64,000 bases of DNA from Strigamia acuminata (Eukaryota). The position numbers were made by a program, and so were the translations under genes. How positions within the stretch are numbered: position 1 is the first letter of the stretch; each line of letters starts with the position of its first letter. The DNA lies in NCBI GenBank assembly GCA_949358305.1, contig OX442314.1, positions 6,014,001 to 6,078,000 on the forward strand, in the 5' to 3' direction. Under the pieces are notes generated by a model that made no database searches, was not told where the DNA came from, and was given only the letters and a program-made list of their open reading frames with translations. Positions 28,719-52,466 of this stretch are shown piece by piece.

Positions 28719-31700
28719 ATGGCCGATCGACGCAACCCACGATTAGAGCCGAGCGCATCGTCGAGAGACGAGAGCGACGGCCTAATCGTAAACGCTGAAG
28801 AAGATGAGAATTGGGACGAACAACCGCCGTTGCAGGTAAATTAGTGTGATTTCCCCAGAGAAATCACATAATTCTTTGAATCTGTTGCATCCAACCCAGA
28901 TTGGAGCGTGACTTGTGACTGATATATTTCTTTCTGTTTTATTATTGATTTAAGGCTGGCTAAAAACCCGAGAGTGGACCCAGATTCACCTCGGAGTCAA
29001 GGCCGCCAAAAAACTAGAACAAAGGAAGTGTTCGCGGAATGGCGTCGTGGCAAACCAAAACCAAAACTAAAGGTTTTCTTTCTTTTAAATTTAAACATCG
29101 TAATAAATTAAAATACGATTAGAGTTAAAATAAAAAAGTTTAACGTAAAATTAAGAATTTAACGATCGGTTCTGCCTGCGACCCCTTCCTAAAAGCGGAT
29201 CACCTGAGTTCAAAAGTAGTGTTGGATCAGCGCTACAACGGCGGAGATCATCGCAGAACTGCGAAACAAGAAAATAAGACCGACGGCCGCAACAAAAGAA
29301 AGGAGTTGCTGCCACCGTCGATCTTGAGCATATTTCTGATCCCCATCGTTAACTGGGATTTATTATATTAATCTTGTGATCTAAAATTATACAGGTTGAC
29401 CCGCTAGAATCGTGGGACGCCCTGCCTTCGACGGTGTCAACCGCCAACAACATCTTTCGCGGAGCCCTGCCGGTTTACCTGCGGCAGGCCTATCCTGCGG
29501 AGACCAGCGCCTGGAAAATCCGATTGATGTATTCCAGGACCCTCGAGGAAAAATTCGAGCGATCCAAAACGCTGGTCGAGTGCATGACGAAGGAGATGAG
29601 GGAGCGAGTGGGGCCGCGGATCCCACCCGATGCGGATCCGCCGAGCCCCGTTTACTCCGGGTATCTGGAAGAGGCTTACCCAGGCACGGTGGCCGAGCTG
29701 CACACCTCCCACAGGTGGCGCGAGGCCCCGACTTTGGCAGCCCGCCAGAGAATAGTGGACGACGAGATCGAACGCTTAAAGCGCACCGAGACTCACGGAG
29801 TAACCCGAGTTCTCGAGAGAAACGGTTTCTCCCCCGAAGAAATCCGTAGATGGCTTCGCGACATCGAAGAAGACCATTTGACACCCAGATGGATACCGCC
29901 GGCGAATTTTACGGCCACGCAGTCTGAGATGTGGCAGTTATACCACGCTGGTATCCTGGGAAGTCGCCGCCATCACAGAAGATCGAAGCGTCCGGCGGAG
30001 TCTGCCCCACGCGGACCCGCACGAAGAAGACAGGCCGTCTCCCCAATAGAGGCCGGCCCGTCAACGAGCCGCGACTACCGCAGCCGCTCGAGCAGCTCCA
30101 GTTCCCGAACTCGAGTTGTCGTGCGCTCGGAGTGTCGCCGAGTAGTAACGCTCGAGCCTGCCTCGCCAGACGACGCGCGGGCTGAGCGAACAGTCGAAAC
30201 TTCCGCCCACTGGGCCGCGAGGACCGAGACACACCAAGATCGAGGAAAGAAAAGATCCTCGTTGTTTATGGCGATTACCACACAGTTGTCAGATCAATCC
30301 TCGTCGCGACGAACCGTCTCATCACACCAGAGACCGGATTCTCCGACGGACGTCCCCCAGAGGACGGTCCAACGAAGGTCCGTCGCAGCCAACACCAGGA
30401 GGAATCGGAAGCGTAAAATACGACAGAAGATGCGTGCACAGTCTCTGATCGCTAAAGGATTGGAGAAAGAGCGAGAGATGGCCGCCGTAAAAAGGTCCGA
30501 ACCCCGAAGTCTCGGACCCACGGCTGGGCCGTCCAGGCTCCAAGCGGAGACCGATTTGGGCGAGTTGACGGAGGAACAAATGTCCCCAGATGAGTCGGAC
30601 AAAGATGGACCGGTTACAAAACAGGATTTGGCCAAAGCTCTAAAGAACGCCTTTCGAGGATACGCGGCCAACCGGCCGTCGGGATCAACCCCGACCGTGC
30701 CGACAGCGCTCGTGCCCCCACAGGTACAGGCGCGATGGCCGCCACTTCTTGAGGGCACGAATCCAGCCGTAACTGCGTGGACTCCTCCCCGGATGATTCC
30801 GGTGGGAGATCCAGCTCCGAAACGGGTCAGATACGATAATCTACCTGGGTTGGGCCGTCCACCGTCACCCCCAACGCCACGAGTGTGTCGACCTTATCGC
30901 AACGCCGAATGGTACGCACAGCGAGAGATGGACGCTCGATGCCGGCGTGAAGCGGCCTATCCTCCACTCAGCGAGCTGCAGGAATATCTGGCCGAATACG
31001 AGAACCCCGCGATTGCCGAGTTGGCCATACGACAGGCCGACGCCGCCCAAACTCACCACATCAATTGGGCGATCGAACAGATGCGGACGCTGTCACAACA
31101 ATTCAGTGACAATCCGGACCGCGCTCACCCCTGCCATCGGAGCAGTTTGAATTTGGCCGTGACGAACGTCATGGCCCAGCTGTTGTCCCTGGGCGTCTTC
31201 TTGGACAGTCGGCAGGCTATGGCGGCCTGGACAATCGTCGACCGTGAGGGAGTTCACCTTCCCCGGGCGTTGTACCAGGTATGGGCCGGATGGACTCCTG
31301 AGCCCGCCTCGCTGCGCTTCGACCTGGCCAGGAATACAGAGAACCCAGGCCTGCAGTTTTCAAAGATGCGTTCGTTGGCATTCCGCTACCGGAACCCCGG
31401 AGTCCACCCTTCCTTGTTGCGAACAATTCGGGAGGCTCCGGAGATACCGGGAACGACAGCGAGCCTCCCACAGGCCATCGAGACCGCCCCCCCAGAGGCG
31501 GCGGTCCAACCATACATACCGACCCCAAAGCCGGTATTCCCAAAGGAGAAGCGGTACGCGAATCGACCCAAATTGATTCCGAAGCGCTCCAACCGAGGAC
31601 CGCGAACTCCTCCGCTGCCCTCTCCTTCACCACCAGCGGCAGAGCTGGCCGCTCTTTCACCAGAGCCGGCTGCGCCGCCGTTGGAGAGCCCAGTGGAGAT

Positions 31701-32180
31701 TCCGCTTCCACCATCGCCTCCGCCGCCCCCAACAGCGCAGCTTTACTTGAGGTTGGGAGTGGAATACCCCTTCCTTCAGATGTCGGAGTTCACGCGACAA
31801 CGCATCATTGACTCCGATGATCACGGCGAGTCGATCCTCAAATGGCTGAACAGAGAGGCCGATCTACCATGGACGCCGTCTTCCATCGTCGAATCCTGCG
31901 GGCCCACCGGAAACCCGGATCGAGCGCCGAATCGCGAAGGATCCGGCTCGTTCCCGACCGATTCCCGGCATCCACCCGGATTTGGATCCACGAACGTACG
32001 GGGCTGATTGGCGAGCCAGTCGGCGGTCACCCGCAGTACTTCATCAACGAGCGACAGAATCCTGCGGATCTGACAACCTCTCTGCCCCCGGATTTACCAC
32101 CGCCGCCACCGGCAGTGCCGCCAGTGATCCTCCGCCCATGCAGAGGAGTGCTGCCGGCTCTTCGCAGAGGAGAGCGATAA
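28719..32180 (+). CDS. Third ORF of Gypsy A, unknown function, not Env; predicted spliced (28719-28835 + 29395-32180) with a 1-nt frameshift near 31862
   Basis: The long ORF 29434-32007 has no ATG near its 5' end. Upstream ATG exon ends CAG|GTAAAT and acceptor TACAG|GTT at 29394, both phase 0. Blocks of similarity to ORF3 of element B continue in another frame to 32180. Confidence 0.75.
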
Positions 32181-32224
32181 AATTGAGATCGCTCCGATCC
32201 GAGATCGAAGCTGGAGGAGGGACG

Positions 32225-33044
32225 TGTGGTGACCCAGTTGGATAGGTGTCCCCCCAGGGCGGATACTAGTCCTCTGAGTCACTATGATTGAAGAGTCGTT
32301 CCCCCCGAGTTGGCTCCACCTCCCCATGGCAGGTGTGTGCCCCGAGGGGGAGGAAGCGGCTGGTGGTCAGCCCCCATTGGTTGACCGCCGGCCCTTCACC
32401 CCACTGCATAAAAGGCTGTGTTTCCCGCCTAAAGTCAGAACTTACACAAACGACACCAAGAACACAGCAACTACCTCACCGTCAGGCCAACTTCAACTAC
32501 AAGTTAGGATTGATCGAGGATCGCTGAGTAAAGTGCAAACTGTAACTCTCACGAAGTCACTTGCGAGCTATTCCTGCGAAAGCACGAGAATAGCCCTTGT
32601 GAAATCACCCAGAATAATCGCCCAGACGATTATTCGCTGAAGTAAGTGTCCGAGTGCTTTGTAGGGAACCCCAAAGTTCCTAGACGAGGCCTCTGCGACG
32701 CTAAACCAAACCCTAAACAACAGGCACGGATAGAAGACTCGAAAGAGCATTCCACCGCGTCCGTGAAGACGAATCCGTGACGAATTAACGACAACTCGAG
32801 ACGCCGCCTTTGTTCCGCCGACCACGCGGAATCGACGACGCCATCTTGAGAAATCCTTTGTTCGACGCTGACCACGTCGACTCTAGAATTATTACTGAGT
32901 GTATTTTAAAGGCATAAAGCCTGGTGAATAAATTACCTGTTTATTTACATACATTTGGTATTCATTTGGGTATTTGCATAATTGATCACAGGTAAAATAT
33001 TACACGTTAGCGCCATTTAAACCTATACGAAGTAGGACGCGACA
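32225..33044 (+). repeat. 3' LTR of Gypsy A
   Basis: Direct repeat of 13384-14203, followed by TSD AACT. Confidence 0.97.
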
Positions 33045-34043
33045 AACTTTTATTTTATTTTGCCACTGTGCACCGGTAAGTACATAATTAATTATAGTGT
33101 TATTCTTACAATAAACCATTGCATAAATGATGTTAAATTGATACACTGGGAGGTTAAATCACCAAACTTTTTAATAAACCGAGTCAAGATAGAAAGAAAA
33201 TCATTTGAAGAGCAATTGCTGTATTAGAATTGCAGTTAACGTGCTGGGACTAAAATTAAATGGAGAGAATCCTCAGACAAGTGCATCTAGTGTTATTTTT
33301 AAAATAATGATTTTTGGCCGTGCGTGTCAAATTAACCATTTGTATTGATTGAATACATATTTTTGTGTAATTGGGACATGAAAGATTTAAAATGTCCGTA
33401 TAAGGATAGCGTCAACGAGTAGTATTTAGAACCTCATTTTGAGTGCGAATTGACAATCCACATCCTGCTTCTTATACCAATTACAACTGTTTAAAATCCA
33501 AATGTAGAGAGACAGCAATGACATTCCCAAACCTAATCCTATAATGCTGCCCACATCGCTTAATAATTGCGATACTGGATAAGCCTGTTTTTCTTCTATA
33601 GTCTCTGTTAAAGTGTTGGCAAATGCAACACCTAGCACTGTAATATGAGCATATTTCAAATCACCAATGTTAAAAATAATTCGGTAATAGGTATTTTCAC
33701 AAGGAGGTTTACATTTGCATTGTTTTTGATTTGCGTTAAAATTGTTAAAGTAGATTAAATGAGCGTTAGTAACGTCCTTTGAAGTGTTGCAAAATGGCAA
33801 ATTCGGTTGTTCTATGTACGGCAATCTGAAATAAACAATAGTTGGGTATGAAATGTTGACCATTAATTAATTAATTAATTTTAATTAGCGTGCATTCACA
33901 ACTAAAAGATTCTGTATGTCTCGCTGGTTGCGATGGGAATGAAGTGTCGTAAAAACACAAAAGCTTCCATACTGCAATGTTTGGATTTGGATTTGTTTGT
34001 AATAAGTGAGGTTAAGTGTTTAGCTTCACTTTGCTACGATATA

Positions 34044-34480
34044 CAGGGTGGTAAAAAAGTCTGTAACTTTACTAAATATTTCTGAACGTGCTGACAATGC
34101 ATCTAATTCAATGATGGTAAAGTATCAAAGTTGGGTGGGGCAATTTTTCGGTGACCCAAAATTTGATCTTCGGATGTTCCATCAAGGTCATTGGAAAATT
34201 ATCGTGGAAACTATTAGACATAGACAGAAATTTCCAATTGTAAACTTGAAACTTGAAACTTGAAACTTGTAAACTTGAAAAAATGACTACTTCTTAAATC
34301 TTTAGGTTGCAATTTTTAAAGTACCAGTAGACACAAGATGGAACATTGCAAGGTCAAATTTTGGGTCAGCAAAAAATTGCCCCACCCGACTTTAATACTT
34401 TACCATCATTGAATTAGATGCATTGTCAGCACTTTCAGAAAAACTTATTTAGTAGAGTTACAGACCTTTTTACCACCCTG
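34044..34480. mobile_element. Foldback MITE, Tc1/mariner-type CAGGGTG termini, intronic
   Basis: ~150-bp inverted arms (CAGGGTGGTAAAAAAGTCTGTAAC.../...GTTACAGACCTTTTTACCACCCTG). TA on the left, AA on the right. Central (AAACTTG)n. Confidence 0.85.
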
Positions 34481-35428
34481 AATAATCAAGCGGTAAGACC
34501 AATATACTGTATATCGAAGCTGAGTGTGTCATTACGCGTCATTATGTTGGCACTGTCATTGAGTCCGTCGTGCAAAGCTAATTGATAAAATCGGAGGTGG
34601 AGTAAAGAATTGAAAAATCTGAAATACCTGCAGTTAACATTTTGGAATAAATTGTTTTGGATACAGGCCTTTTTGCACTTGAAATGAGCAGTTTAATTTT
34701 TTTCACATGGATTATGCTTCGTATTTCTCCGTATAGTCTATATTGTTAAATTAAAGTTGGTTAGCATAATCACACAACATAATTTGTTTAATTTGTTACC
34801 TTGACTACTCTAAGTCCAACAATATTCATCAATTCATAGTGTAAATATAAAGGTGCCAAAATGTTGACTTCATCTTCCGGGTCATTTAAGAATAGCTGTG
34901 TACAGTAGTTCTTTGATTAAGAGTCGCCCTCAAATAATAGCGGGGGCTATAACTTCGAGGGTGCCTACAATTCCAGGCTATTATTCCGACTACATTTATT
35001 TGCAAACCCACGTACCGCAAAGTCAGAAATTTAAAAAAAAATAAGGTTTAACTTCTTTTTTTTTTAATTTGCGCAACTTGTATAAACATACAGGCTATGG
35101 CAGTGGTTCCCAAAATCGAAGAAATGCTGTATTATTTTATTTGCGTTCCTTCCAGTCATCGACGACAAAAGGAAAAGGAAACAATAATTTTGTTGCCATG
35201 TGTCAATTTGTGTTTTTATTTTTGTGTACGGGGATTTGCAGAATTGATGCGCCCTAAATATTTAATCCCACCTTTAGCTGCGGGTGGCATATTTTGGGAG
35301 CTCGAATAAAAAACCCAATTGCAGTGGAAATATCTAAGTGCGAAGTTTCGTCTGAAAAGTGAGAATCAATTTTCAGTTGCATCCAGGGATAAAAGTAAAA
35401 CAAAATGTCATTGCAACGTTATCAAAAT

Positions 35429-36665: not shown

Positions 36666-38641
36666 TATCAAAATCAATTGGTGATGTGCTGCTAAGGTCC
36701 CACGCCGGCAAGGGCAACCGTGCCTAGTGCCGACTTTGCTCCTCTCACCATTCACCACTGGGAAGACAGCCAAGCCTGTTGGTATTTTATGTCACCTGGC
36801 TAATTGTATTGTAAATCCCGAATGAGGGTCTCCCACCGCCAGGGCGAGCTGGGTGTAATCACATGGACCAATCACGTTGTCATGTGACTTCCGGTCACTT
36901 CTTGTATCGAGACAATGGCGTGCGGTTCGTGTTCGGAGTGTGTGCGCGAATAAACGAACTTTATCTTCAACAATCAATGCGATCGTTCTCCATCCATTTA
37001 CAACAAAGGGTTATGGGCACCAGGACGTTCAAATGCGTGAGTTTCTAGTCTTTTGCAAGACATTTCCGTGCGTTTTTGGACACTTGACCGCTGATCGGAC
37101 CACGTGAATTTGGGCCTATTGAAATTTCGTGGTAGATATAAGTTTGGTATTTGTTCAAATGGCAGATCAAGAATCAACGCAGATTGAAAAGTTGGAGGAC
37201 GATAATTACGCCACATGGGCATTTAAGGTGCGTGTATTCCTCCGAAAATACGAATGGTGGACGGTCATTGTGGACGAGCCACCATTATCATCCAGATGCT
37301 GCCGAAGGACTACTACAGCATCCCGAGAGCATTCGACATGTGCGACGACGACGAGATCACGATGATAAAATTGCGGCACATGATTTTGCAGGAGACACGG
37401 CAGAAGGGCGACCGCATGAACGGCAACAATCAGGGCGGTGAACGCGACAGTGAAGGAAACAGCGAGCAGAGCGGTGAACGCAGACGAGATATGAAGCACA
37501 TGAAGTGCTACAACTGCAAGAACCTCCGGCACATCGCAAAAAATTGTCGAAGCCAAGCGGGAATCAAAAACGAGCACGATGCAGACCACAACAAGCCAAA
37601 GCGGAACGTGAATAAGGAGCAGCAGCCAGACGCGACCGTCAGGGCTGTGAAGACTAACCAATTTGTTTTTCAGGTTAAGACCGAGGGACGAGAATGGAAC
37701 CTCCACTCAGGAGCGACACGACACCTGACGGCAAATCGGGATTTCTTTGAGACGTTTACGGCCAACGACGGAAGTTGCAAAGTAACGCTGGCCGAAGGTC
37801 GATAAATTTCCATCCTGGAGAGCGCAAACGTGCGGTTAACGATGGACGATGCGGATACAGTCGCAAGGGACGTGCTGTATATTCCCGATTTGTGCGACAA
37901 TCTGATTTCTGTGCCAAAACTGGACGATGCGGGACTGTGAATTGCTTTTGGGGGCGGAGTGTGCACGATTTCAAGCGGGGATTAAGTGCTGATGACTGCC
38001 ACAAAGATGGGAGACGTATACATGGATTGAATGTCGAGACGGTGTGGTAATCCCAAATTACTACATAAAGGAAATTCCTTAAATCTAATAATTTTATGTG
38101 AGTCTAATTTGAGTACCAAAAGGATTGCAAGAATTATCCAGGCACTACAGGATGTAGCCCCTATCTTGTGTGGGACACAAGATAAGATCTAGGGACTACA
38201 GGATGTGCTACATCCTGTTAGCAGTGAGAGCAGCTGCTAAGAACTCAGTCTAAACCTGAATCTGAACCTGAAAACACCTCCTGAAAAACACACAACTGAA
38301 ACTACTGAAAATCATTGTTTGTTATGGGAGAAACTTCACTTTGGACTCTGGACTCACTTCTGAAATAGCACAACTAGCTATTTCAGGAAACATAATTGGT
38401 AATTCTCTTCCCAACAAGAAGAGAGGGATTACACTCTTCTCCAAGTAAGAGTCAGCTCACACTCTTTGCTGAAAAGAGTCAAGATTCTCCAGTCGCCACG
38501 GCTAGGACGCTCGCCCATCGTCGCAACCAACGTTGGGTAGAAGGAGGGAGAATCAACACGTTGCCGAACGTAAGCAGATCTAGTTTACGGGATTTCCCGA
38601 CTAAGACAGCGGAATTCCGCTTGCGTTTGTATTCCGCTCGT

Positions 38642-38956
38642 ATGAGTGGAAATATTCCGTTGGAACCAATTCCCGAGACGTACGAAGACGCCACGGACGA
38701 GATACAGCCAGGACCGGCATATCTCGAGATAGTAGCAGTCCCAGACGAGCCACAGCCCGCCAGGACGCATACGAGGACCGAAGCGAGGTTGGACTTCAAG
38801 TTTGACGTCCAAGCGAACTCCATCGCCCACGCTGAAAGATTAGATGCGATAAGAAGATTTCGGACGGAATCGATAATCTTCATCGGCAGTGTATTTTTCC
38901 TTATTTCACTTTTCCTAATTATAAGTTATTTTGTCGTGAAATCATATATTAATTAA
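38642..38956 (+). CDS. LTR-encoded 104-aa putative membrane protein with a C-terminal TM helix (5' LTR copy)
   Basis: ATG 38642; acidic Pro-rich N-terminus, then RRFR, then IIFIGSVFFLISLFLIISYFVV and a 5-aa tail. The frame is open back to 38396. Confidence 0.55.
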   Translation: MSGNIPLEPIPETYEDATDEIQPGPAYLEIVAVPDEPQPARTHTRTEARLDFKFDVQANSIAHAERLDAIRRFRTESIIFIGSVFFLISLFLIISYFVVKSYIN

Positions 38957-39303
38957 TCTTTCTATTTCATACTGTTCTCAAAGTCTGGAAAACCCAGCAT
39001 TGTAAATTAGCATTTATTCATATTTTATTGTAAGATAATTCCGGGTCGGAATTATCCCTATTTTTATATCAAAGTATTTTTATTAAAAGTCAGAGAGTTA
39101 AATTATAAAAGTTAGTAATTATTTATATTATATGTAAGTCTTTTTAAAAGCAATCCTAGCAAGCCCGAGTATAACATTTTAATAATATTATATTCGAGGT
39201 TTGTTACACTTGGGGGCCTGTCGATTTGAACTAAAAATTGTTAATTTTAACGGGACTCTCGACTTTCTTACTGTTTCTTTCTTGCACCTTTTATTATAAA
39301 AAA

Positions 39304-42300
39304 ATGCCGAGAAGAAAGAGCTTTATCTCTACGAAAAAGTATCCGACGCGTCAATCAGGACCACCGACGGACAGCCAAGCGCCAGATCAAGATATGGAAG
39401 TGGATATTCCACAAGTACCTGTAATAGTTGATCAGGCGCAAGGAGCGGTCGGAGGCAACGTAACAACGCCTTCGCCGCCCAAATTAACACATTCACCGCC
39501 AAAATCGGTTGAATTATCTGGAGAACCTGTGTTGCAACAAGTGCGGCCGAAAACTCCGGAAGTGACGGCAAAAAAGCCGCCAGACATTTTGGCGCAGCAA
39601 AAATCGCCAAAATCGCCAAAATCGGCGACGAAAGAGACTGAAACTTCGTCGTCAAAAATTCCACGCTCAATTTCACGACCACCGTCACGTAGAAGTCACA
39701 TGTCGGAAGCGGATCGTGAATTGTACGAAAAAACACTGGCCAACGTGAACAAAGTGGGCTCAGTGTACAAGCAACAATCGTCCAGTGAACGAGACGCGGC
39801 CGAAGTTTCGTTAATGGACTTAATGGACATTGTTGAGGACAGAGTACGTGAACGACCACTTATTCGACGCCAACCAGGCGAAAGGCTTGTGGACGCCTAC
39901 CGGAGAAGCCTCAGTGCAATTCGGGCAGATATGGCAGACAGAGCAGGTGAAGCTTTCGACACGGAATCGGCCCGCGTAGAAAGTGAAAAGGGCCTCTCAC
40001 CAAGCGAAAGAGACATTCGACGCCGTGAAAGACTAAAAAATTTCAAGCGTGATGACGTTTGGGTCGCCTTAATGAGTGAAGAACAAGCAGCCGTTCGCGC
40101 AAAAAATCAACAACGAGAAGTTGATAAAAGACGCCGTGACAGCACAGAAAAATTTGCAGAAAATTCCGTTGAGTGGGTGCGTAACGAAAATAATCGTATC
40201 CTGTCCGGAATGAAACGTCTACGAGAAGAGAGAGACATGTTGGAGGCAGAGCAACAAAGATTGGTGGAAGAAAAACGTGAAGTCGAAAAACGTAAGCAAG
40301 AGGCCATTACAGCAATAGAGGCAGAAAATGAGCAGCTTCGTTTGATCACCTTTCGCGCTGAACAAGACGCGGAAGCGGTGCGACGACACTTACGCAGAAA
40401 TCAATTCTCTCAAGACATTCCATACTCTGCATATGACGTCACGATTAGTGAACTACATGAACGTGCAGGACGACAACAAACCGATGAAGAGTCGGAAAGT
40501 CCGTCTAAAAAAAAGAGGGGGGAGGAGCCAGTACCTGGAGAAAGGAGAATACAGCCACCCTCACCTGCACAAAATCAAAATTTAATTGATATGTTAAATC
40601 AACGAAATTTGCAGCCACACGGTCAGCCAAAAAATAGTGATATGCAGCCAATGGAAATAGATACAAATTTCAGAAGTGTAAGACTGACAATGGACATAGA
40701 CATTCCAGTTCGAGCAAAATGCCCATACACGGGAGATGATCTCGTAACAAGGCAAGGAAATGTGCAAAATATTCAAAACACTCCAAATAGAAGGGAAGTG
40801 CGTCGAGAAAGGCAGCAGACAACCGAAAATCGACCAAATTGGCAAAATCTACCGCCAACTCGACCAAAGGCACCAATATTGGGAGAAAGAGCAAATTCAC
40901 CTGTGTCAATAATTCGACCGGAACCACAGTATGCATGGGAACGTCAATACAATAGGCAAGAAGGTGAATCGAGCAGAGAAAATCCGTTTGGACGACCAAT
41001 ATTGAGTCCACCAGAATATGAAGACTCGGAAAGAGCAAGAAATAATCCTTTTCTCACTCCACCAAGAGAGAGAGACCAGGAAGTGCCAAGAAATGAGTAT
41101 CAGCTGCCACAAGGATTTAAACAGCCAAAGGAGGAAACAAGAAGTTTCCAAACATACGTAAATCCATGGCTGAACAGCGCAGCAAATCAGCAAAGAGAAT
41201 TTCCCCAAAGTCAAGAAGGAGGATTCACGCATCATAACCGAGGATTTCGAGATTTTAATGCGCCACCATCCTATGACAGAGGAAATCCTCAACAGTCGCA
41301 ACAAGAAAATAATAATTTTCAGCGACAACAGAGAAGTGATAAATTCTCACAAAATAATCCAAGATCAGATAATTTTCGACAAGAACAAAATTATCACAGG
41401 ACGAATTTCGAACCACGTTGTGGACAGCAACAACAGCAAAGGACAAACAATCCATTTGCTGAGCAACTTCCAGAACAAGGAGCGACAGCACCGACTCCAG
41501 ATGCACAATATTGGGAGCAATACATCAAAGATCAAATTGATTCCAAATTGGCAGCGACAGAAGTCGATGAAGCTGACGAAGCTCGCCAGAGAAGGTTCGA
41601 AAAATATCGAGCAATAAACTGGACACACGTTTGAGCCAGAAAGTCAAATTAAATGGGACAGAATTTTGCCAGATATATTTGATGGAAATTGGCATGCCGG
41701 AACACAATTTCTGGAAGAAATGGTGCGACTAGCCAGAGCAAGCGGTGCGAGTCCATATTTGACGTTAAAAAAGATTGTTCCAAAAGCAGTATCCGATAAT
41801 AGGGGGTTTCATTATATGAATGATTTTGCAATTTTGTGATTTTGCATTAATCACAAAATCATTATTTTTTGATGCCTCCAAAAATGAGTTTACATTGAAT
41901 TAACCCAGTCAATTTTGCAATTGTGTGATCTGGACAATTTTGTGATTTTTGAGTATTGTCATGTGATATCTGTTCTACCAATCACATTCACATTCACTAA
42001 AGCACAAAAGAGTAAAAACACAAAATCCCAAAAACATCTAAAAGGTAGTTTTTGTGATTTTGATAAGAAGTGATTTTGAGGCTTGTGAAACTCAAAACAA
42101 AATGGAGGCATCCAAGCTCTATCTAAGTGGCCAACTTGTATCCTTGTATATCATCAAAATGCTGATGCATCCATGACTGTATAACAGCTAGGAAACTCAA
42201 TACTTCGATTCGGGTAAAAAAAAGTACCGATTCAGGGCGATTCAGGGCGATTTTAGCGGGTGCCCGAATGGAAATTCAGGCGGAAATGTTCGTCGCGTAT

Positions 42301-44424
42301 CGTTTTTTATTGTTTTCTATGTCAAGATGAGCTCGGAAAATTATGGAACCAAGCTCATTTTGAAGAGGAGACAATTCTGCACAAGCCTGTATTTTTTATT
42401 TTTTGATTCGGGCGAGGAAAAGTGCCGATTCGGGCCATCTTAGCGGGGGACCGAATGGGAAAATTTGGAAATTTGGTGCAGAATTTGGATTCGAGATTCG
42501 ACCATGACAAAACCAAAAATTCGTAAAATTAACCGAATGAAATGTTTAAAACAGGTTTCCAGAGAAGAAAATCCCGCTGAAAACGATGGTACAGATAACT
42601 TTTTGATCGGATTAACCGTTGATTTTAAATTTTGGAAAAAACGATCTTTTTTGGGTTGATTTATAAGAAAAAGTTGGAAAAAGTGGTTGAATAATAAAGG
42701 AGGACAAAATAGCAGGTTGCAGTGGTTTGGGCCAAAATTGAATTGGCTGGATTGGCGTTGGGTTTAGGTTAACTTTTGGGTTTGATTGTGTTTGGGTATT
42801 GGCCAGATTGGCATTGGTTTTGGTTTGGTGTGGTTTGGGTTTGGGTTGCATTATTATGGGTTTGGTTTAGTTTTGCAAAAATTTATTTTATGATTTGGTT
42901 GTATACATTTGTCTGATCTATGGCTTTGGCTTTGTGGGTGAACAGCTAGTATTTATTAAAATGCACCTTATTAAAAAATATTTTGTTCCATCACACAAAT
43001 AAGAACTAGTTTTTTTGCATCACATTTTAAAATTGGTTGGATATAACTATAACCTAATATGGTGGATAGGAAGTCACGTGACTATTTAAATAATTGCAAA
43101 ATTGCAAAATTATGAGATTGTTTTTGAAACTAATTATTAATCACAATTTGTGATGGCCACTTGGATTGAGTTTGGCTGCTGCCATTTTTGCCAAAATAGC
43201 AAAACTACCTTTGATTTTGTGATTGTGTATTTTTTCTGTTTTGTGTTTTTGCAATTATGCACATGATTGGTAGAACTGATATCATGTGACAAATCCAAAA
43301 GTGCAAAATTGCTAAAGTTGCAAAATTACAAAATTGCTTAATTAATGAAACCCCCTAATGCAGCTGATTGGTTCTACGAGCAAGGATTCCAAGATTGGGA
43401 TTCGTTCGTAAAAGCATTTTTGACAGAATATGGCGAACCAATCGAGACTCTATTGTACCATTGGGATAATTGGCAACAATATAGAGGAGAGGATTTACGA
43501 GCGTACTTACGACGAACAGAGGATCTCCTCGCCAAATTGCCATACAAAATGGGCGATGCGTCGCATGATAGACAATTTAGAAAAGGCTTGACTCAATATT
43601 CGAAAAATATATTGATGTCAGTAAATGCACCCAACCCAGGGTCATTCAAAAAATTAGCCACATTCATGCGAGCGCACCAAACAAAAATCGACGAACGGTT
43701 TATAACGTATATGACCAACGCCGATCGAGAAGCTATGAAAGAGCTAAGCAAGAAGCAGTCAGAAGCAGCTTCCGGAGGTACGAGACGAATGAAACCGCGA
43801 CAATACATTCTCCCACCTTCATCAAATACGCCAGCTGAACGTACAGTACCAGTTGACCCATCCAATCCGCACCCACCACCCAAAAGTGCAGTCAAAATGA
43901 CGGCAAAGGCAATAGTGGAAAGGTTGGAAATGGAAGATGAAGAAGAAGTGCCAAATGAGACAAATTGGGCACAGGAGGAAGTAGAGTCAGAAGTAAATGA
44001 TTTATTAGAAGGAGCTCACGCTTTCTACACAAGAAATAACACGACAGCTCCAAAATATAAACCATCACTGCAAGGAAGGACAACAAATCCGTTTACTCGT
44101 CCAGCAGCAGCAGCAGCGCCCGTATCTGCGCCAGCTTCAATGCCAGCCCAAGCTGCAAAGCCGACCACAGCTTCAAATAACTTCACGAAGGTGATGGAAA
44201 GATTTCTAAGTCAACCTTCAACTTCAACTGCACCCCTGCCTACAGGAGCGGTTCCCAAGCCTACACCGCCAGTAGTCAAAGCAACGCCAGAGAACTCACC
44301 TTGCAACAATTGTCAGCAATTAGGACATTGGTCAAGGAACTGTCCCCAACCGAAGAAATTCACGAAGGAGGACATTGAGCAGATAGTAAAATCACTGACG
44401 GAGCTCGTTCAAAAAAACATGTAG
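39304..44424 (+). pseudogene. gag: Gag of Gypsy B, disrupted by a frameshift (~41617-41630) and a TIR-element insertion (41801-43356)
   Basis: Reconstructed IKWDRILPDIFDGNWHAGTQFLEE...AVSDN|AADWFYEQ aligns with Gag A IRWQHYIQTRFDGSWKAGDRFLDE...GSAREWYQ. CNNCQQLGHWSRNC knuckle. Confidence 0.88.
41801..43356. mobile_element. Non-autonomous TIR DNA transposon with 3-bp TSD (PIF/Harbinger-like), inserted in gag B
   Basis: Perfect 14-bp TIR AGGGGGTTTCATTA/TAATGAAACCCCCT and TSD AAT. Inverted subterminal blocks (e.g. 41957-41985 versus 43263-43291) and many TTTTG(C/T)(A/G)A motifs. Removing it restores the gag frame. Confidence 0.9.
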
Positions 44425-44458
44425 GCGCGGACTCTCGAAGCCAAGAGCAGCCCGCGCC
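44412..44458 (+). promoter_or_regulatory. Predicted -1 frameshift signal (gag-pol) of Gypsy B
   Basis: A_AAA_AAC at 44412-44418, a 5-nt spacer, then stem GGCGCGG/CCGCGCC. The -1 frame is open into pol. Confidence 0.82.
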
Positions 44459-47400
44459 CACGTGTAACTCGGAAACCGGTGCAAAAGGAGAAAAGGCAGT
44501 GGAACAAACAAAAGAAGTGGAAATTTCAGAAGAAGTTAAAATAAATGACGATAAACTGGAATCTCCAGAATGCAAGTTGGAAGTGAAGGAAGAAATCAAA
44601 GCAGAAATTCAAAATATAGATGCATCATATTTCACCAAAGAAGTAAAAGCAGAGCTGGAAAAAATGGAAAAACCGACAGAGTTGCCAGCTACAGTCTTTT
44701 GGTGCAATGTGAAAAAAGATTTTGAGGAAACACCGACATTAAGCGAAGAAATAATGTCGATGAAGAGTGAATTCATAACATTGGACGCGATGTTTGAAGA
44801 ATTACCTCAGTTCTCAGGCGAAGAAAAATACCGTCTAAGGCGAAGTGACATCTTGGTTTCCAACGACGAAATCATGAATGGTCTAACGACGCTGAGAATA
44901 ATTACGAAAAAAGGATCCATAGTAACTATGTTGGATTCAGGGGCCAACCGGAGCTACATCACGATGCCTCTAATCAAGAAAATGGAATTGGAAAAGAAAA
45001 TAATTCCAGGAGACTCAAAAGCAGTTGTATCAACTGCAGATGGAGATGTAACACCCGTTGGACACATCAATTTGTCATTCACGTGGTCTCATGGTGTAAA
45101 TAATCATCATTTCATAATTTTGCCGCATCAGTATTCCTTCATTCTCGCTGGAAATGATTTTATGAAAAAATTAAATATTCAGCCAAATCCAGTAACGGGA
45201 GGATGGAATTTTATTGCAAATGTGCCAGCGCCAAGACCGTACATTGCGCAAGATGTGCTGGAACGCTACGAAGAGAAATTAGAGCAGCCAACATCATCAT
45301 TTATGACATTTGTGAAAAGGACAGATTATAAAACATTCCAAGCTCGACTAAAAGTTGGAAATGCGATCGCAACATTGACTGAAGAAGCAAAATTAGAATT
45401 AACTGAAGCAAAACAGTTAGAAAAGGTGTTACGCAGACATGAAAAGATTCTGACAAAAGTACCAGGGAGAACACACGTGACACAACATAGCATTGACTTA
45501 GATACAGATAAGCCAATAAGAGTGCCATTTCACAGCTGGAATCCCCAGAAACGTGAAATTTTAAAGCAAATGTGCACAGATTTGAAAGAAAAAGGCTATG
45601 TGTCAGATGCAATCGGCGATTACGCAACAAGGATAGTCCTTGTGATGAGGCAAGGATCGGACCCTCGTCTCTGTATTGATTATCGTCCGATAAATGAACA
45701 CACCAAATATGATCCACCGCAAATGCCGACAATAGACGAAATTTTGCGTGAATTAGGCGAGTTCAATTGGGTCTCGACAATAGACTTAACAAAAGGGTAC
45801 TGGCAGATTGAACTAAGGCCAGAGGACCGCCCTAAAACAGCTTTTTGGAGTCCGATCGGACGTCTCATGTTTAACGTGATGCCGTTCGGTCTGGTCAATG
45901 CGCCCACGACATTCCAAAGAATGATCGAAAAAGTTTTGGGAGACGCATACAGGATGTATGCGTGGGCATATTTGGATGACATTGTCATTGTTTCAAAAAC
46001 ATTCAAGGAACACATACAGCATGTTGACAATGTTTTGACCAAATTGAAAAATGCTGGATTACACGTAAATCCAGAAAAATCAAAGTTTTTCAGAAAAGAA
46101 CTTTCCTTTTTGGGCTACAAGCTTGGAGTTAATGGGCTCAGTGTGGACCCAAAGAAAGTCTCAGCAATCAAAGACTTTCCAGCACCAACGGATCTCAAAA
46201 GTTTACAAAGATTCCTTGGAATGGTGAATTTCTTTCACCGACTGCTAAAGAATTTGGCAACCACTGCAGAGCCATTACGCCCACTGCTAAAAAAGGAAAC
46301 AGAATTTGTGTGGACTGAAGTTCATCAAAAAGCATTTGACGAAATTAAAGCAGCACTAACCGACTCAGATACGCTAAAGCTGCCAAACCTATACAAGCCA
46401 TTTATTGTGCATACAGATGCCAGTCAAAAAGGACTTGGAGCGGCACTTATGCAGGAGCAGCTAGTCGATGGTCAAATGATAGAAGTTCCGTGTGTTTACG
46501 CGAGCAGAAGCCTTCAGCAAGCTGAGAAAAATTACAGCGCTACGGACTTAGAATGTCTCGGCGTAATCTGGGCACTACGGAAATTCCGTCCATATTTAGA
46601 GTTTACGCACTTTACAGTGCAAACGGACCACCAAGCACTCAAGTGGTTAATGATGTTAGAAGAACCAGCCGGACGTTTGGCAAGATGGCAGATGGAACTT
46701 ATGAGTTTCAACTTCAAAATAAATTACATCAAAGGGCCATCAAACGTCGTAGCTGACGCATTATCACGAGCGCCAGTAGATAATTTGGATGAACCAGAGA
46801 TCTACGACGAGATTACGTCATACTGCCCAACAGCAAATGGACAATGGTCATTCACAAATTGGAACCAACTTCCACGTCAAGATCGCGAGCCAACTCCTGA
46901 AGAAAAAGAAGAAAAATTCATAACATATTGGTGCCAATCACTCAACACCAAAGATGAGGAGTTTGAGCCAGATCAAGAAGAAGAAGATTGGAAATATATA
47001 CCCAATACAGAAAATAAAATGATGAAAGCATTTGTCGCCAGAGTAACAGAACAATTAGATTGTGCGCCACCTTCGCGACAAGACTTTATTGATCATCAAA
47101 TCCGAGATAGACAATGTCAACAAATGCGACATTTTCTAGAAACACAAGAACTTCCACCACAAGTTAGAACGCCAATAGAAAAACAAATTTTCCGAAAAAT
47201 GGCAAATCAACACATTGTGGAAGACGGATTACTACTTCGATTCCAACCCACTCTTTCCGACGAATTAGGAGATGATGGGAGAGCGATGAAAGTAGTAGTA
47301 CCAAAGACTTTACGTCACAGAGTCTTATGGTTAATGCACGGCCATCCGCTGGCAAGCCATTGTGGAATTTCTCGCACATTATATCGCATGCGACGAATTT

Positions 47401-48734
47401 ATACATGGTCAGGAATGAAAAGAGACGTGGCACGCTTTATTAAACACTGCCCACGTTGCCAGGCATGTAAGCCACGCATTAAGCCAAAAATTGAATCCGC
47501 AGAAATTGGGCCTTATGCACCATTTGAGTGTCTCAGTATCGACCTCACAGGCCCAAAACCACGAACAGATCGCGGAAACACATACATCTTGGTAATTGTA
47601 GATGTCGCAACAAGATGGCCAATTTTTTATCCAATGTCAAATCCAACAGCGGTAAAAATTGCAAATTGCATCTACGATGTATCAATGAGATGGGGATTTC
47701 CCCGCAAATTATTGTCAGACAATGGCCCACAATTTAAAGCCAAAGTCTACAAAGAATTTTGCCGAAAATTTAAAATTGTGCCGAAATTTACGTCCCCGTA
47801 TCATCCTCAGGCTAACCCAGTAGAAAGGGTTAACAGGGACATAAAATATATTATTTCGATTTATTCAGATCTTCACAATAAGTGGGATGAATATTTACGC
47901 GAAATAGCATTCAGTATAAAAACCACTGACACCCGTGGTAGAGGCTATTCGCCAGCCTATTTAAGTTGCGGGCGCGAATTTCGAGTGCCATGGGACCCGC
48001 GAATATTGGATGATATGCTGCAAATCGACCCGCAAAATCCTCATATTTACGTGCAAAAATTGGAGCGCATCATTGGTGACACATATCAACACATGATGGC
48101 GCACATCGTCGATTTCCGAGAAAGAGTAAAAAACAAGAAAATTTACGGAAAATTTCAAGATTTCCGAGTCAACGATCTTGTGTGGCGAGAAAGTCACGTA
48201 TTATCAAATGCACAACAAGGAATTTCGGCAGGATTAGCTGATAAACGCACAGGGCCGTACGTCATCATGCAAATTCATCAAGGAGGCGCGGCAAAATTGA
48301 AAAGATTAAAAGACAACAAAATCTTTGGCTCAATTCATTTAACCGAATTGACTCCATATTTTCCCGAATTTAATCAGGAAATATGGAAAGAAAATCAATC
48401 TGCAAGCGACATAAATGCAGAAGTTGTCAACACACTTTATGACGAAGTCGCGACCCCTCCAAATGATGAGACAGCGCCTGTAGAAAACAATGGAGCGCAT
48501 TCCACACCAGAGTGTGAAGTCCAAGCCACTCCATTCCCACCTGTCAATAATGTAGAAATCCGTCAACAAGTGGACGAATTTTTAAAAAGGAGGGAGGAAG
48601 GGGTGAGAAGGAAAAATAGAAATAAATTGCGCAAAAAAGATAAAGTGGAAAATCCACACGAAACCAGTGAAAAACCGACTCTTAAATATAATTTAAGAGA
48701 TCGAGCAAAAATCCGAAGTCCCCAGTATTTATAA
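44415..48734 (+). CDS. pol: Pol of Gypsy B (PR-RT-RNaseH-IN), uninterrupted
   Basis: MLDSGA, RLCIDYR, YLDD, HTDAS, TDHQAL, HGHPLASH..CPRC, IDLTGP, SDNG, NPVER and GPY; colinear with Pol A. Confidence 0.96.
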   Translation, partial: KHVGADSRSQEQPAPTCNSETGAKGEKAVEQTKEVEISEEVKINDDKLESPECKLEVKEEIKAEIQNIDASYFTKEVKAELEKMEKPTELPATVFWCNVKKDFEETPTLSEEIMSMKSEFITLDAMFEELPQFSGEEKYRLRRSDILVSNDEIMNGLTTLRIITKKGSIVTMLDSGANRSYITMPLIKKMELEKKIIPGDSKAVVSTADGDVTPVGHINLSFTWSHGVNNHHFIILPHQYSFILAGNDFMKKLNIQPNPVTGGWNFIANVPAPRPYIAQDVLERYEEKLEQPTSSFMTFVKRTDYKTFQARLKVGNAIATLTEEAKLELTEAKQLEKVLRRHEKILTKVPGRTHVTQHSIDLDTDKPIRVPFHSWNPQKREILKQMCTDLKEKGYVSDAIGDYATRIVLVMRQGSDPRLCIDYRPINEHTKYDPPQMPTIDEILRELGEFNWVSTIDLTKGYWQIELRPEDRPKTAFWSPIGRLMFNVMPFGLVNAPTTFQRMIEKVLGDAYRMYAWAYLDDIVIVSKTFKEHIQHVDNVLTKLKNAGLHVNPEKSKFFRKELSFLGYKLGVNGLSVDPKKVSAIKDFPAPTDLKSLQRFLGMVNFFHRLLKNLATTAEPLRPLLKKETEFVWTEVHQKAFDEIKAALTDSDTLKLPNLYKPFIVHTDASQKGLGAALMQEQLVDGQMIEVPCVYASRSLQQAEKNYSATDLECLGVIWALRKFRPYLEFTHFTVQTDHQALKWLMMLEEPAGRLARWQMELMSFNFKINYIKGPSNVVADALSRAPVDNLDEPEIYDEITSYCPTANGQWSFTNWNQLPRQDREPTPEEKEEKFITYWCQSLNTKDEEFEPDQEEEDWKYIPNTENKMMKAFVARVTEQLDCAPPSRQDFIDHQIRDRQCQQMRHFLETQELPPQVRTPIEKQIFRKMANQHIVEDGLLLRFQPTLSDELGDDGRAMKVVVPKTLRHRVLWLMHGHPLASHCGISRTLYRMRRIYTWSGMKRDVARFIKHCPRCQACKPRIKPKIESAEIGPYAPFECLSIDLTGPKPRTDRGNTYILVIVDVATRWPIFYPMSNPTAVKIANCIYDVSMRWGFPRKLLSDNGPQFKAKVYKEFCRKFKIVPKFTSPYHPQANPVERVNRDIKYIISIYSDLHNKWDEYLREIAFSIKTTDTRGRGYSPAYLSCGREFRVPWDPRILDDMLQIDPQNPHIYVQKLERIIGDTYQHMMAHIVDFRERVKNKKIYGKFQDFRVNDLVWRESHVLSNAQQGISAGLADKRTGPYVIMQIHQGGAAKLKRLKDNKIFGSIHLTELTPYFPEFNQEIWKENQSASDINAEVVNTLYDEVATPPNDETAPVENNGAHSTPECEVQATPFPPVNNVEIRQQVDEFLKRREEGVRRKNRNKLRKKDKVENPHETSEKPTLKYNLRDRAKIRSPQYL

Positions 48735-49010
48735 ATAGAAATGGCGTCACTCGGAATCCAGGATATGGATGACGTCATGGGATAGGGACTGAACGGAAAC
48801 AAAACGTCACTTTTCCGTTCATCGCCAAAGTAGAAACACACAAGTGTTCGTGTCAGCTAAAAAATCGGATTTATCAACAGAAAATAGGATTTATCACTGA
48901 GTAGTAAGTTAAACTGAAGTGGATTGCCACAATAAATATATAATGACAAACAAACTTCGTCGAAATTAGGAAATTATCGGAATTTCGGACGAAAGAGGCG
49001 AACGCCAATT

Positions 49011-51822
49011 ATGTCACGCAAACGCGCCTACATCCCCGACGAGGATAGCGAGGATGAAGAAGAATTTGAAGAGACCATGAAGGTATTTATGATTAACACA
49101 AAAAAGGAAAAGTAAATCCTTAAAAAATTTAGTTAAAAAATTGCAAAGTCAAAAAAGCAATTTCGGAAAAGAGAAAGTTGTTAATCGAAACCAACATGGC
49201 TGCCTTCAAATATGGGAGTTTCCCGTCTAATGGAATAATTAATTTATTCAGGTTCTCTCGTATATGGCCACGTGGGAAGACATTTACGACGCCGGATTTT
49301 GCAATTGGGCGATACAACGGGGCAGAATTCCGGAGGCGCTGAGAACCGCTTTCGAGAAATATGGGCCCTGGCGAGTAAGGAAATGGTGGTCCAAAGCGAT
49401 CGAAAAACGATGGGGGACAGACAAACGACTATGTGTCTGCATGCCAGTTAATAAACGCGAGGAATCACGTATCGCGTTATGGGGCGCCGATGTACCATCG
49501 CCGTTATGGACGGAACTATTAGCCGAAGAATACCCCATCACAAGGCAAGAAGCTCATGATCGGAGACGCTATTTCCAACGAGGATCGGATAAGCGAGTTA
49601 TTTTGGAGGAAATAAGAGAACGGCTGCGATCAAATATGCACGAAGTCGCCGCCAAATACCTGAAGGCGAAAGCGGAATATGAGAAAAAGCTGAAACGATT
49701 TCCACAGTCAGTTAGGCCTGGATCACGCCCTCCATACTTCGCAAAAACGCAGTCAGAGATGCACCAACTCCATATGGCAGGTGTATTTTCCAGCGCTGAT
49801 CCAGTCATGTCCAAAGAAATAGGGGACAAGAAAAGAGCCAACGAAAAACGCCGTCGTATACACGAAAACGAACCCGAGAGGAAAATCCTCAACCAAGACT
49901 ACAGTGATTTGCGAACACGACTAGATCTCCGAAGTCAACTCGCAAAATCAAAACACCAAAGTCGGCGTGATCAACATCAAAATCGATGGAACTCACATCA
50001 TCAGCGATCACCTCCACCAAGGCATCGAGAGACGTACGTTGGAACCCAGAATTATCCAACGCCACCTGAGTCGAGCCGTCAACTTCCGCCCGACGAATGG
50101 AAAATTTTATCTGAGGTCGTGACGAAGAAAAGCCATAGCTATCAGCAGCAGCGGCCGAATAGAACCATTCATATCACGCCCACAACAGTTCAGGTGACCA
50201 CTGAAGGACGACAAAGCGATGCAGAACTTCAAAGCAATCTCGAGTTAGCACAGAAGGCTCCAAGGACGCCGCCAGGCTCTACACGAAGTTCAAACCATAG
50301 CAAACATTCACCAATAATCTGGTCGAACGAAAATCGCCCAGAAAAAGAGAAGTCGCCGCCACCTCCTCCTCCGCCACCATTGGAGAAGAAGGGAGCTGTC
50401 AAACCCAGAAAGATTCTGCGGCCTAGACACAGACAAGCAAGCATTCCGGAAAGTTTGAGGAATTCCTCTAAAGCTACCAAGAATGCAGGGCAGGTGCAAC
50501 AATACATCATGCCACACGAAAAGCTCGTAAGCTACCGACTTCCAAAAGAGGACTCATCAATTCCAGTTCCCGATGTGCCGCAAATTAATTTTTCGGGAAA
50601 TATATCCATGCAGCCAGTTGATGGATTTAATCAAGATTACCGAAAATTGTGCGAAAGATATTCAGTATATGCAAAAGAAGCGCAAGAACTGCTCAAACCG
50701 CATTTGGACGTCTTCCAGAACGACCAAATAAACGAGGGAATATTCGATTGGCAGCGGAACGCAGAAGAGTTCAGGAAAACCCCACTCAACGAACAAAACG
50801 AAAGGTTCCTGAAGCGCTTCAAACGAAAAATGACTCGCGCACCACAAAGAATTCTGTATCCAGGAGTATTGGCAACGGACGAATACGCCTTTATGGCAAT
50901 AACATTTCTATGGTCGTCGCCAATGGGAATTCCCAAAGAGATGATACAGAATTGGATGTCGATATTACCCGACCCCGCCGAATTGCGAGCCGACCTGATA
51001 AGAAAAGCCCTTGCAAGCGGCGAGACAGCGAGTCAGGGGGCCATACGCTTGCGTAGTGAATGGCAAGCCAGAAAATCCGAAGTTGAGTTAGGATTGAAGC
51101 CATTCGTGCCACCAGCCACAAACCCGTATATGCCAGTATTTGCAACCGGACGGACGCCTGGACCACAGCCGCCTTCGTCCAGACCTGAAGCCACATACAC
51201 ACCAATGGCTGCCGCCATTGCATCAGGTCACCAGAGTTCGACGAGTACATCGAAACCGACACCGGAAAAGGATCAGCGAACTTCTGGTTACACATCAGGA
51301 TGGCAATCAGATGCGTGTCCAACACCACGATTGGTGCAAGCCGACGCTAAGTTGCAGGAAGAGCGCGTCCGTCATCGATTGGAATTGCTAGAGATTTCAA
51401 GGGCAATCGCGGAGAGCAAAACTCAGCAAGCAAACGAAAAACCTAAAGGGCCCGTAATCGACAACAACAATTACGGAAAAATTCGTTATTACTACCCTTT
51501 GCTCAAATTCTCCGCAAGCACTCGCATTATATTGATGAATAATTCGGTGCTTTGCCAGGAAACATTTGACTGGTTGGAGATCCATGCCAAATGTGGATCC
51601 GACCCAATTCTCCAAGCCAGACTGGTAAAAGCCCGAAGACACATCGACGAATGTCCAGAGACTTACCAGATTCCAGTCAGACATGTCTACGCCCGAATCC
51701 AAGACATTGGCGAAGTATGGCTCAAGATCAACCTTGGAATGGTATCCGGACCCGAAAGAGGAAACCCAAGATTCACCATTTTGGAAAGCCCGGTCCCGAC
51801 CTTGGATCTGAGCAACGCATAA
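49011..51822 (+). CDS. Third ORF of Gypsy B, unknown function, not Env; predicted spliced (49011-49082 + 49252-51822, 880 aa)
   Basis: 852-aa ORF between pol and the PPT. Upstream acidic ATG exon ends AAG|GTATTT and acceptor TTCAG|GTT, both phase 0. Homologous to ORF3 of A. Confidence 0.8.
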
Positions 51823-52466
51823 AAGAAAAAAAAAGTGGTTCCACTTCTCCCCTAAAAAGGAGGGAAGTGTGGTAATCCCAAATTACTACATAAAGGAAAT
51901 TCCTTAAATCTAATAATTTTATGTGAGTCTAATTTGAGTACCAAAAGGATTGCAAGAATTATCCAGGCACTACAGGATGTAGCCCCTATCTTGTGTGGGA
52001 AACAAGATAAGATCTAGGGACTACAGGATGTGCTACATCCTGTTAGCAGTGAGAGCAGCTGCTAAGAACTCAGTCTAAACCTGAATCTGAACCTGAAAAC
52101 ACCTCCTGAAAAACACACAACTGAAACTACTGAAAATCATTGTTTGTTATGGGAGAAACTTCACTTTGGACTCTGGACTCACTTCTGAAATAGCACAGCT
52201 AGCTATTTCAGGAAACATAATTGGTAATTCTCTTCCCAACAAGAAGAGAGGGATTACACTCTTCTCCAAGTAAGAGTCAGCTCACACTCTTTGCTGAAAA
52301 GAGTCAAGATTCTCCAGTCGCCACGGCTAGGACGCTCGCCCATCGTCGCAACCAACGTTGGGTAGAAGGAGGGAGAATCAACACGTTGCCGAACGTAAGC
52401 AGATCTAGTTTACGGGATTTCCCGACTAAGACAGCGGAATTCCGCTTGCGTTTGTATTCCGCTCGT

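Follow-up and report, generated by a model that had tools for sequence, protein, structure and literature searches.

Two distantly related Ty3/Gypsy elements of Strigamia acuminata, elements A and B, carry in the env position homologous copies of a large third gene, ORF3, in which an intron is predicted and which we regard with high confidence as a selected accessory gene. Both elements lie in the window analysed here, a stretch of 64,000 nt (GCA_949358305.1, OX442314.1, 6,014,001-6,078,000, forward strand) whose positions serve as coordinates throughout; the element features given below are on the + strand.

Element A comprises a 5' LTR (13385..14203; 819 bp, TG...CA ends, 5-bp target duplication), a PBS (14205-14224), a gag gene with a CCHC knuckle (14298..17438; ~1,046 aa), a pol gene (24276..28337) and a 3' LTR (32226..33044) with a polypurine tract just ahead of it. 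A slippery heptamer was found at 17405, pol is in the -1 frame relative to gag, and a Copia element (17484-24274) is nested between the two genes. In element B, the 5' LTR (38043..39208; 1,166 bp, 4-bp target duplication) is followed by a PBS whose first 12 nt are the same as in element A, by gag (39304..44424, whose frame changes near 41,620 and which is broken again by a TIR element at ~41801-43356), by pol (44379..48734, -1 frame relative to gag) and by a 3' LTR (51868..53033), again with a polypurine tract just ahead. The Pol order PR-RT-RH-INT, together with TG...CA LTRs, a PBS, a polypurine tract and a target duplication, identified both as Ty3/Gypsy (Metaviridae) elements, of ~12.9 and 13.4 kb without their insertions. 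They are recent insertions and distant relatives of each other. The two LTRs of A show 4 differences and those of B show 3, and the LTRs of A could not be aligned with those of B (154 of 200 shuffles scored equally well), in agreement with the preliminary description of this DNA. The window contains a Copia element carrying an MBD.

In an RT tree, A and B formed a branch of their own (support 100/100) inside a group supported at 98/94, which further holds metagenomic proteins and one protein of Orchesella cincta; the tree was built without the Osvaldo, Woot and Ulysses reference elements and does not fix the lineage against references. The PBS may correspond to tRNA-Pro, which it resembles, and no host tRNA was found within the 64-kb window. 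A and B are long and have 4-5 bp target duplications, like the Osvaldo/Woot-like lineage as outlined in an excerpt of PMC3286476; that excerpt gives the lineage 1-2 ORFs and a PBS for tRNA-Lys, whereas A and B have a third gene and a PBS that we take to be tRNA-Pro-like. Troyka was dropped as an identity because A and B begin with TG and end with CA (TG...CA) and their duplications span 4-5 bp, judged against part of the description in PMC12440569.

ORF3 had been described as starting at 29395 in A and 49252 in B. These positions are not start codons; they lie directly after TTATACAG and TTATTCAG, respectively, which are predicted splice acceptors, and each is preceded by a short ATG exon and an intron. 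The predicted exon 1 of A (28719..28835; 39 codons) has a basic start, turns acidic and ends in phase 0 with CAG before the donor GTAAAT; it is followed by a predicted GT-AG intron (28836..29394; 559 nt, 39% GC) and by exon 2 (29395..32180), whose first ATG comes only past the first conserved block. The predicted exon 1 of B (49011..49082; ATG, 24 codons), likewise basic and then acidic, ends in phase 0 with AAG before the donor GTATTT, and its GT-AG intron (49083..49251; 169 nt, 28% GC), with a CTAAT branch-point-like motif, leads to an exon 2 that is open for 856 codons (49252..51822). The predicted acceptors fall in the same alignment column within one codon, both in phase 0, and the last 8 nt of the introns are identical at 7 of 8 positions, the remainder being unalignable. 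P0003, the one metagenomic homolog of ORF3 found among 1.84 billion representatives (source contig of 2,921 bp), has an in-frame acidic leader ahead of the first conserved block. Among the indels listed for public DNA runs, the contigs of three runs were a net 23 nt shorter over the exon 1-exon 2 span, and are therefore incompatible with a read-through frame. No splice joint was seen in the contigs of the public DNA runs, a result that has no bearing on expression. Of 2000 shuffles, 7.5% and 3.7% contained an open ATG exon closed by a donor, a pattern that had been picked after being seen. The predicted intron of A folded better than 100 of 100 shuffles (z -4.96), the structure of that of B was not unusual (z -0.76), and an Rfam search gave 0 matches. 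Judged from these sequence features, ORF3 is predicted to be an intron-split gene in both elements, encoding a protein of ~880-970 aa.

Nor is 29395-32180 a single ORF, as had been proposed. The frame changes near 31,860, the first frame stopping at 32007 and the second at 32178-32180, so this interval is a frameshifted gene. The six pairs of shared blocks in the preliminary description were otherwise borne out: all 12 motifs are present and five of the six pairs keep to a single frame in A as in B, but in A the frameshift puts the sixth block (IWIHER, 31980) out of frame with the others. Exon 2 contains three domains, N (~29395-29970 in A, ~49252-49794 in B), M (~31018-31335 and ~50686-51006) and C (from ~31744 and ~51472-51819). 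In A, the N-M linker is basic and rich in Ser and Arg, with its most basic patch at 30391-30435, and the M-C linker is Pro-rich; the basic patch of B is at 49828-49857.

The homology between the two proteins is real. BLASTP aligned the N-terminal 190 aa at 30% identity (E=1e-14) and the middle domain at E=1e-5, with no significant alignment in the second linker. None of 300 shuffles scored as well for the whole protein, and none of 1000 for N or for M; in the C domain, 5 of 1000 did so for the block before the frame break and 0 of 1000 for the second-frame block. The first linker was not alignable (545 of 1000 shuffles), and neither was the spacer ahead of exon 1 conserved (69 of 200). The N domain is conserved about as well as the Gag capsid region, which is 25% identical between A and B. 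Nucleotide identity at the three codon positions was 0.45/0.55/0.27 for N and 0.42/0.50/0.34 for M, third positions being the most diverged. Among the element-B variants listed from public DNA runs (40 of 514 substitutions and 12 of 55 indels), 9 of 14 codon changes were synonymous, against 28% expected (p=0.005). A selected accessory protein, as first proposed, is thus supported because N, M and C have kept their similarity whereas LTR, spacer and intron can no longer be aligned, and because within-family variants lean synonymous.

Further homologs were sought widely. A word-index search with ORF3-B covered 6,393 candidates (470-1,498 aa) and gave no homolog; of 7,990 proteins scored with a profile of A, B and P0003, P0003 alone was recovered. 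ORF3 patterns were confirmed in 0 of 245 metagenomic, 0 of 27 viral and 0 of 20 prokaryotic stretches, integrase patterns gave 0 of 54 in viral contigs, and ESM Atlas gave no usable match. Six-frame translations of 80 metagenomic integrase loci, scanned with an ORF3 HMM, gave at best E=0.015, in low-complexity sequence; since these loci are distant (23-34% identical to the B integrase), come from 4 of 64 collection parts and are often short, absence of ORF3 in sister clades does not follow. At E<=0.1, neither full-length protein matched any Pfam family, Env, F and gB families included; no family was assigned in PHROGs (one weak match, E=0.036) or by a sequence search of the PDB (lowest E values 0.17 and 0.25), which accords with the earlier statement that no domain is recognisable. 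The predicted models were of low confidence (mean pLDDT 41 and 45) and mostly helical, the M domain being predicted as helical at pLDDT 59-75. With these models Foldseek reached E<=0.001 for no entry of the PDB or of viral libraries, and the best VIA fold-search matches, to a designed helical bundle (Z 7.3, rmsd 3.2, 92 aligned) and to BAR helices (Z 7.8, rmsd 2.7, 86 aligned), are at the level of generic helical matches, with the N and C domains barely covered.

ORF3 had also been said to lack a signal peptide and a TM segment, and we reach the same conclusion by hydropathy and charge, without a dedicated predictor. The highest 19-residue hydropathy was 1.65 (internal) in A, 1.09 in B and 1.33, at a different place, in P0003; the borderline stretch of A is not hydrophobic in B, the exon-1 peptides are charged, the first 30 residues of exon 2 average 0.05-0.09 and the tail of ORF3-A 0.82. 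Thus no N-terminal signal peptide, C-terminal anchor or fusion peptide was detected in either protein. The preliminary description was therefore sound in reading ORF3 as an accessory, non-Env protein of no known domain, and had overlooked that A is frameshifted and that an intron is predicted. The nuclear location and the functions it listed are tentative, basic patches and analogy being what speaks for them.

Third ORFs that do not encode Env are already known as a category; the ORF3 protein family appears new, and no description of it was found in the open literature searched. An excerpt of PMC5408684 describes non-env ORF3s of bdelloid LTR elements, of GDSL, DEDDy, coiled-coil and TM types, with spliced messages as the typical expression route. 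ORF3 is likewise a separate third ORF after pol, but belongs to an unrelated lineage, has no TM segment and matched neither a GDSL nor a DEDDy family with catalytic motifs. It shares its position with the F-type or gB-type Env of errantiviruses, but not the signal peptide, TM anchor, Cys pattern or family match, as far as these are covered in part of PMC13524379. MDG1-group sORF1 and sORF2, according to a portion of 10.1101/2025.03.14.642691, are also non-Env accessory genes of arthropod Gypsy elements, of ~70-110 aa and mostly upstream of gag, sORF1 being nuclear and sORF2 a TM protein. Unlike sORF2 and FAST-like proteins (70-200 aa, one TM segment), ORF3 is far longer and has no TM segment.

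What could the protein do? Rev, Rex and Tas of complex retroviruses are encoded by a small coding exon after pol and a larger 3' exon, and have an arginine-rich patch. ORF3 resembles them in its predicted exon layout and in its patch, but is much larger, Rev being far smaller, and no homology was found. By analogy, our leading, still tentative, hypothesis is that ORF3 is a Rev/CERV-like nuclear regulator that binds intron-retaining genomic RNA and aids its export. A spliced subgenomic mRNA would yield the protein, the Arg/Lys-rich patch after the N domain might serve nuclear import and RNA binding, the helical M domain could be a protein-interaction or self-association module, and full-length RNA keeping the ORF3 intron would leave the nucleus via ORF3 for Gag/Pol translation and packaging. 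The anatomy is regulator-like because the first linker has a basic patch in all three proteins (A, B and P0003), ORF3-A has 21 RS/SR dipeptides, M is predicted to be helical and the A intron is structured. Against this, no link to CERV or Rev emerged by sequence or by fold, CERV being absent from the matches of the homolog searches; no export-signal-like motif occurs at a shared position across A, B and P0003, the B intron is unstructured, the A copy is frameshifted, and the basic patches are equally compatible with import alone or with binding to DNA. As presented in part of PMC10309623, CERV of C. elegans Cer1 joins gag-frame exons and is a 517-aa protein with a Cys loop; ORF3, in contrast, opens with a separate ATG exon downstream of pol, shows a single invariant Cys, located in the N domain, and is far larger.

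That same ATG exon would suit a close rival, which we consider possible if somewhat doubtful: a nuclear factor for transactivation or anti-silencing, expressed from an internal promoter downstream of pol, that binds LTR DNA or chromatin and sustains transcription. Foamy-virus Tas and plant VANC are the models. The acidic N-terminus, Pro/Ser-rich linkers and basic patches are consistent with it, and the MBD-carrying Copia hints that chromatin marks matter to the host's elements (part of PMC6673714); yet no DNA-binding or chromatin-reader family was matched, the spacer ahead of exon 1 is not conserved, and the elements lack CpG depletion (o/e 1.0-1.2). A cytoplasmic, peripheral factor that brings capsids to membranes, ESCRT or the cytoskeleton for cell-to-cell passage without a fusogen seems unlikely. 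YPxL, an ALIX-binding late motif, opens the C domain in A and B, both proteins have poly-Pro tracts, ORF3 sits in the env position, and Env-independent spread exists among Gypsy elements (excerpt of 10.1101/2025.03.14.642691); but there is no TM segment, P0003 has neither C domain nor YPxL, and the motif may just belong to the folded core. We give little credence to a captured host gene without a role in the element cycle, or to P0003 marking its host source family: the short contig of P0003 (2,921 bp) leaves room for this, but ORF3 persisted while the LTRs diverged beyond similarity, and a named cellular homolog did not emerge from the homolog searches. A highly diverged Env, despite the position, is largely refuted and most improbable, given the missing signal peptide and C-terminal anchor, Cys below 1%, N-glycosylation sequons numbering 1 and 6, linkers of disorder type, low-confidence models that are mostly helical and the lack of an Env family match.

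For a third ORF in the env position, annotation as env by default is thus unwarranted. It is conceivable, if speculative, that a deep Gypsy lineage of arthropods, so far undescribed, arrived independently at a layout like that of complex retroviruses, with an intron-split regulatory gene encoding a new three-domain family, as conserved as capsid, that would control genomic RNA export or expression, possibly via structured RNA in the retained intron. Outside retroviruses there are few worked examples of LTR retrotransposons exporting intron-containing genomic RNA and countering silencing, CERV being the one found in the literature. ORF3-B would be a second, unrelated candidate; as it is intact, and its invariant residues are mapped from three diverged sequences, localisation and reporter tests are feasible at once.

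Two full-length Ty3/Gypsy elements lie in the window, A at 13385-33044 (819-bp LTRs with 4 differing positions, 5-bp target duplication) and B at 38043-53033 (1,166-bp LTRs with 3 differing positions, 4-bp duplication). The few differences between the LTRs of each element indicate that both insertions are recent. In both, pol has the order PR-RT-RH-INT and is in the -1 frame relative to gag. Both copies are damaged. In A, a Copia element separates gag from most of pol; in B, gag carries a TIR insertion as well as a change of frame. Identity between the two elements is 62% for RT, 59% for integrase and 25% for the capsid region. Their LTRs, described as unalignable in the preliminary description, indeed aligned no better than shuffles, and neither did their post-pol spacers or introns. 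An RT tree was built from 45 rows, without reference elements (12 long-branch or duplicate rows having been removed from the 57 of an earlier quick tree). In it, A and B formed their own long branch (support 100/100), nested in a group supported at 98/94 that also holds one Orchesella cincta protein and unnamed metagenomic proteins. Their closest integrase matches were just 26-38% identical. Together with the DEG/ENaC genes and the MBD-carrying Copia described below, these relatives make an arthropod host probable.

Both gags (A, 14298-17438; B, 39304-44424) are very long, and their charged N-terminal halves did not align with each other. A 12-nt PBS is common to A (14205-14224) and B (39210-39221), the longer match of A resembling a tRNA-Pro primer site. 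The 8-nt start of this PBS was not found in the supplements of PMC13524379. A strong fold directly follows the pol stop of A (28338-28490; compared with 20 rough shuffles, z was about -4.4). The Copia nested in A (17484-24274) looks intact, with identical 557-bp LTRs and a single 1,658-codon frame; an MBD match (PF01429, E=2e-5, above cut-off) lies between its integrase and its RT. The element is similar to CopiaMBD, which has been reported in a centipede and in a spider (PMC6673714); a further host for an element of this type would be noteworthy. The TIR element in the B gag (about 41801-43356) is non-coding and about 1.55 kb long; its ends are of the GGGGG type, and it has a duplication of 2-3 bp. 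A Copia-like gag/protease remnant adjoins B (about 36500-38042 and 53034-53932), as do flanking repeats (36827-37008 versus 53078-53259, 94%), and the insertion of B apparently took place within an older element. An LTR element at 57167-64000 runs past the window end; its long LTRs are identical, at least 1,791 bp of them being matched. It looks non-autonomous, having a PBS-like site at 59080 and neither a gag nor a pol ORF in its interior. Two DEG/ENaC copies (PF00858; 7349-9524 and 54220-56114) lie on opposite strands and are about 71% identical, with related repeats near 1500-2350, 10080-11000 and 33460-34900. An A-rich tandem array and several MITE-like inverted repeats occupy 5075-5320, 34073-34447, 35438-36656 and 56161-56580.

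After pol, each element carries a third gene, ORF3-A and ORF3-B, placed by the preliminary description at 29395-32180 and 49252-51822. All 12 motifs attributed to the pair were found in the window, and the pairwise alignment was significant (N domain about 190 aa, 30%, E=1e-14; M domain about 110 aa, E=1e-5). The two are homologous in three blocks, N, M and C, each outscoring 1000/1000 shuffles except for the part of C ahead of A's frame break, for which 5/1000 shuffles were as good. The first linker was not alignable (545/1000 as good). ORF3-B is open for 856 codons. ORF3-A shifts frame near 31,860: the frame in which it begins stops at 32007, and its last block lies in the one that ends at 32180.

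The starts proposed for both genes proved to be predicted splice acceptors, following TTATACAG and TTATTCAG. A short ATG exon is predicted upstream in A (28719-28835, 39 codons) and in B (49011-49082, 24 codons), each with a basic start, an acidic body and a terminal GT donor in phase 0, and the acceptors map to the same alignment column to within one codon. Since exon 2 of A has no ATG ahead of its first conserved block, an upstream exon is needed. The predicted introns are AT-rich (GC 39% in A and 28% in B, versus 60% and 49% in exon 2). Such an ATG exon occurred in 7.5% (A) and 3.7% (B) of 2000 shuffles, the pattern having been picked post hoc. In contigs from three public DNA sequencing runs, the span from exon 1 to exon 2 of B is a net 23 nt shorter; among the 12 of 55 indels listed, the sole one inside the ORF3-B gene falls in the intron and none in coding exons. 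Both genes are predicted to be spliced.

Nucleotide identity between A and B per codon position was 0.45/0.55/0.27 in N and 0.42/0.50/0.34 in M, and different codons are used at 37 of 54 identical N-domain residues. Four public runs were aligned to B, three spanning 30/30 bins and the fourth 14. In the small, tool-selected sample of 40 listed substitutions (of 514), 15 lie in ORF3-B exons and make 14 codon changes. Of these changes, 9 are synonymous, where 28% would be expected (p=0.005); all three in the mini-exon are among them.

By sequence criteria, ORF3 is not Env: it has no signal peptide or conserved hydrophobic segment, as first described, contains <1% cysteine and matched no Env family. 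Nor was a domain recognised, again as described, Pfam, PHROGs and PDB giving no family match. HMMER with B's N domain returned a single protein from 1.84 billion representatives, the hypothetical JGI/IMG protein P0003 (525 aa, E=1.3e-6), which also matches ORF3-A (N, E=3e-13; M, E=1e-6). P0003 has the acidic leader and basic linker and lacks the C domain. N-domain invariants include W4, G20, P23, L26, W36, R39, S43, L56 and C59, a D76-P78-P80 motif and Y90-P91-T93. AlphaFold2 models had low overall confidence (mean pLDDT 41 and 45); for the M domain of P0003, a helical bundle is predicted (pLDDT 59-75). No account of the family was found in a literature search that did not extend to Repbase and GyDB. 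Unrelated metagenomic Gypsy loci (L012:12572, L029:12462, L076:5103) have 684-709-codon ORFs 3' of integrase matches, without homology to ORF3.

ORF3 consists of an acidic leader, N, an Arg/Lys- and Ser/Arg-rich linker, a helical M, a Pro-rich linker and C, with basic patches in the first linker of all three proteins; as far as sequence indicates, this is the anatomy of a soluble regulator. A role like that of Rev or CERV is the leading possibility, though less likely than not. CERV, from Cer1 of C. elegans, is the closest worked example, being spliced, in the env position, three-domained and needed for genomic RNA export (PMC10309623). The predicted intron of A folds far beyond chance (z -4.96, 0/100 shuffles as good) and might serve as a response element; that of B is not unusually folded (z -0.76), and no export-signal-like motif is common to the ORF3 proteins. 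A role as transactivator or anti-silencing factor is nearly as likely as the Rev/CERV-like one; it would suit the acidic segment, the Pro-rich segments and the ATG exon that ORF3 has for itself after pol. A trafficking factor, for which a YPxL motif common to ORF3-A and ORF3-B only would speak, is improbable. The remaining probability is divided among Env, a passenger gene and explanations outside this list.

Third ORFs other than env have been described in bdelloid elements (PMC5408684) and reviewed in PMC6431247, and CERV and sORF1/2 (10.1101/2025.03.14.642691) are further examples. ORF3 belongs to this known category; it is a real, selected accessory gene, predicted to be split by an intron, of an apparently new protein family.
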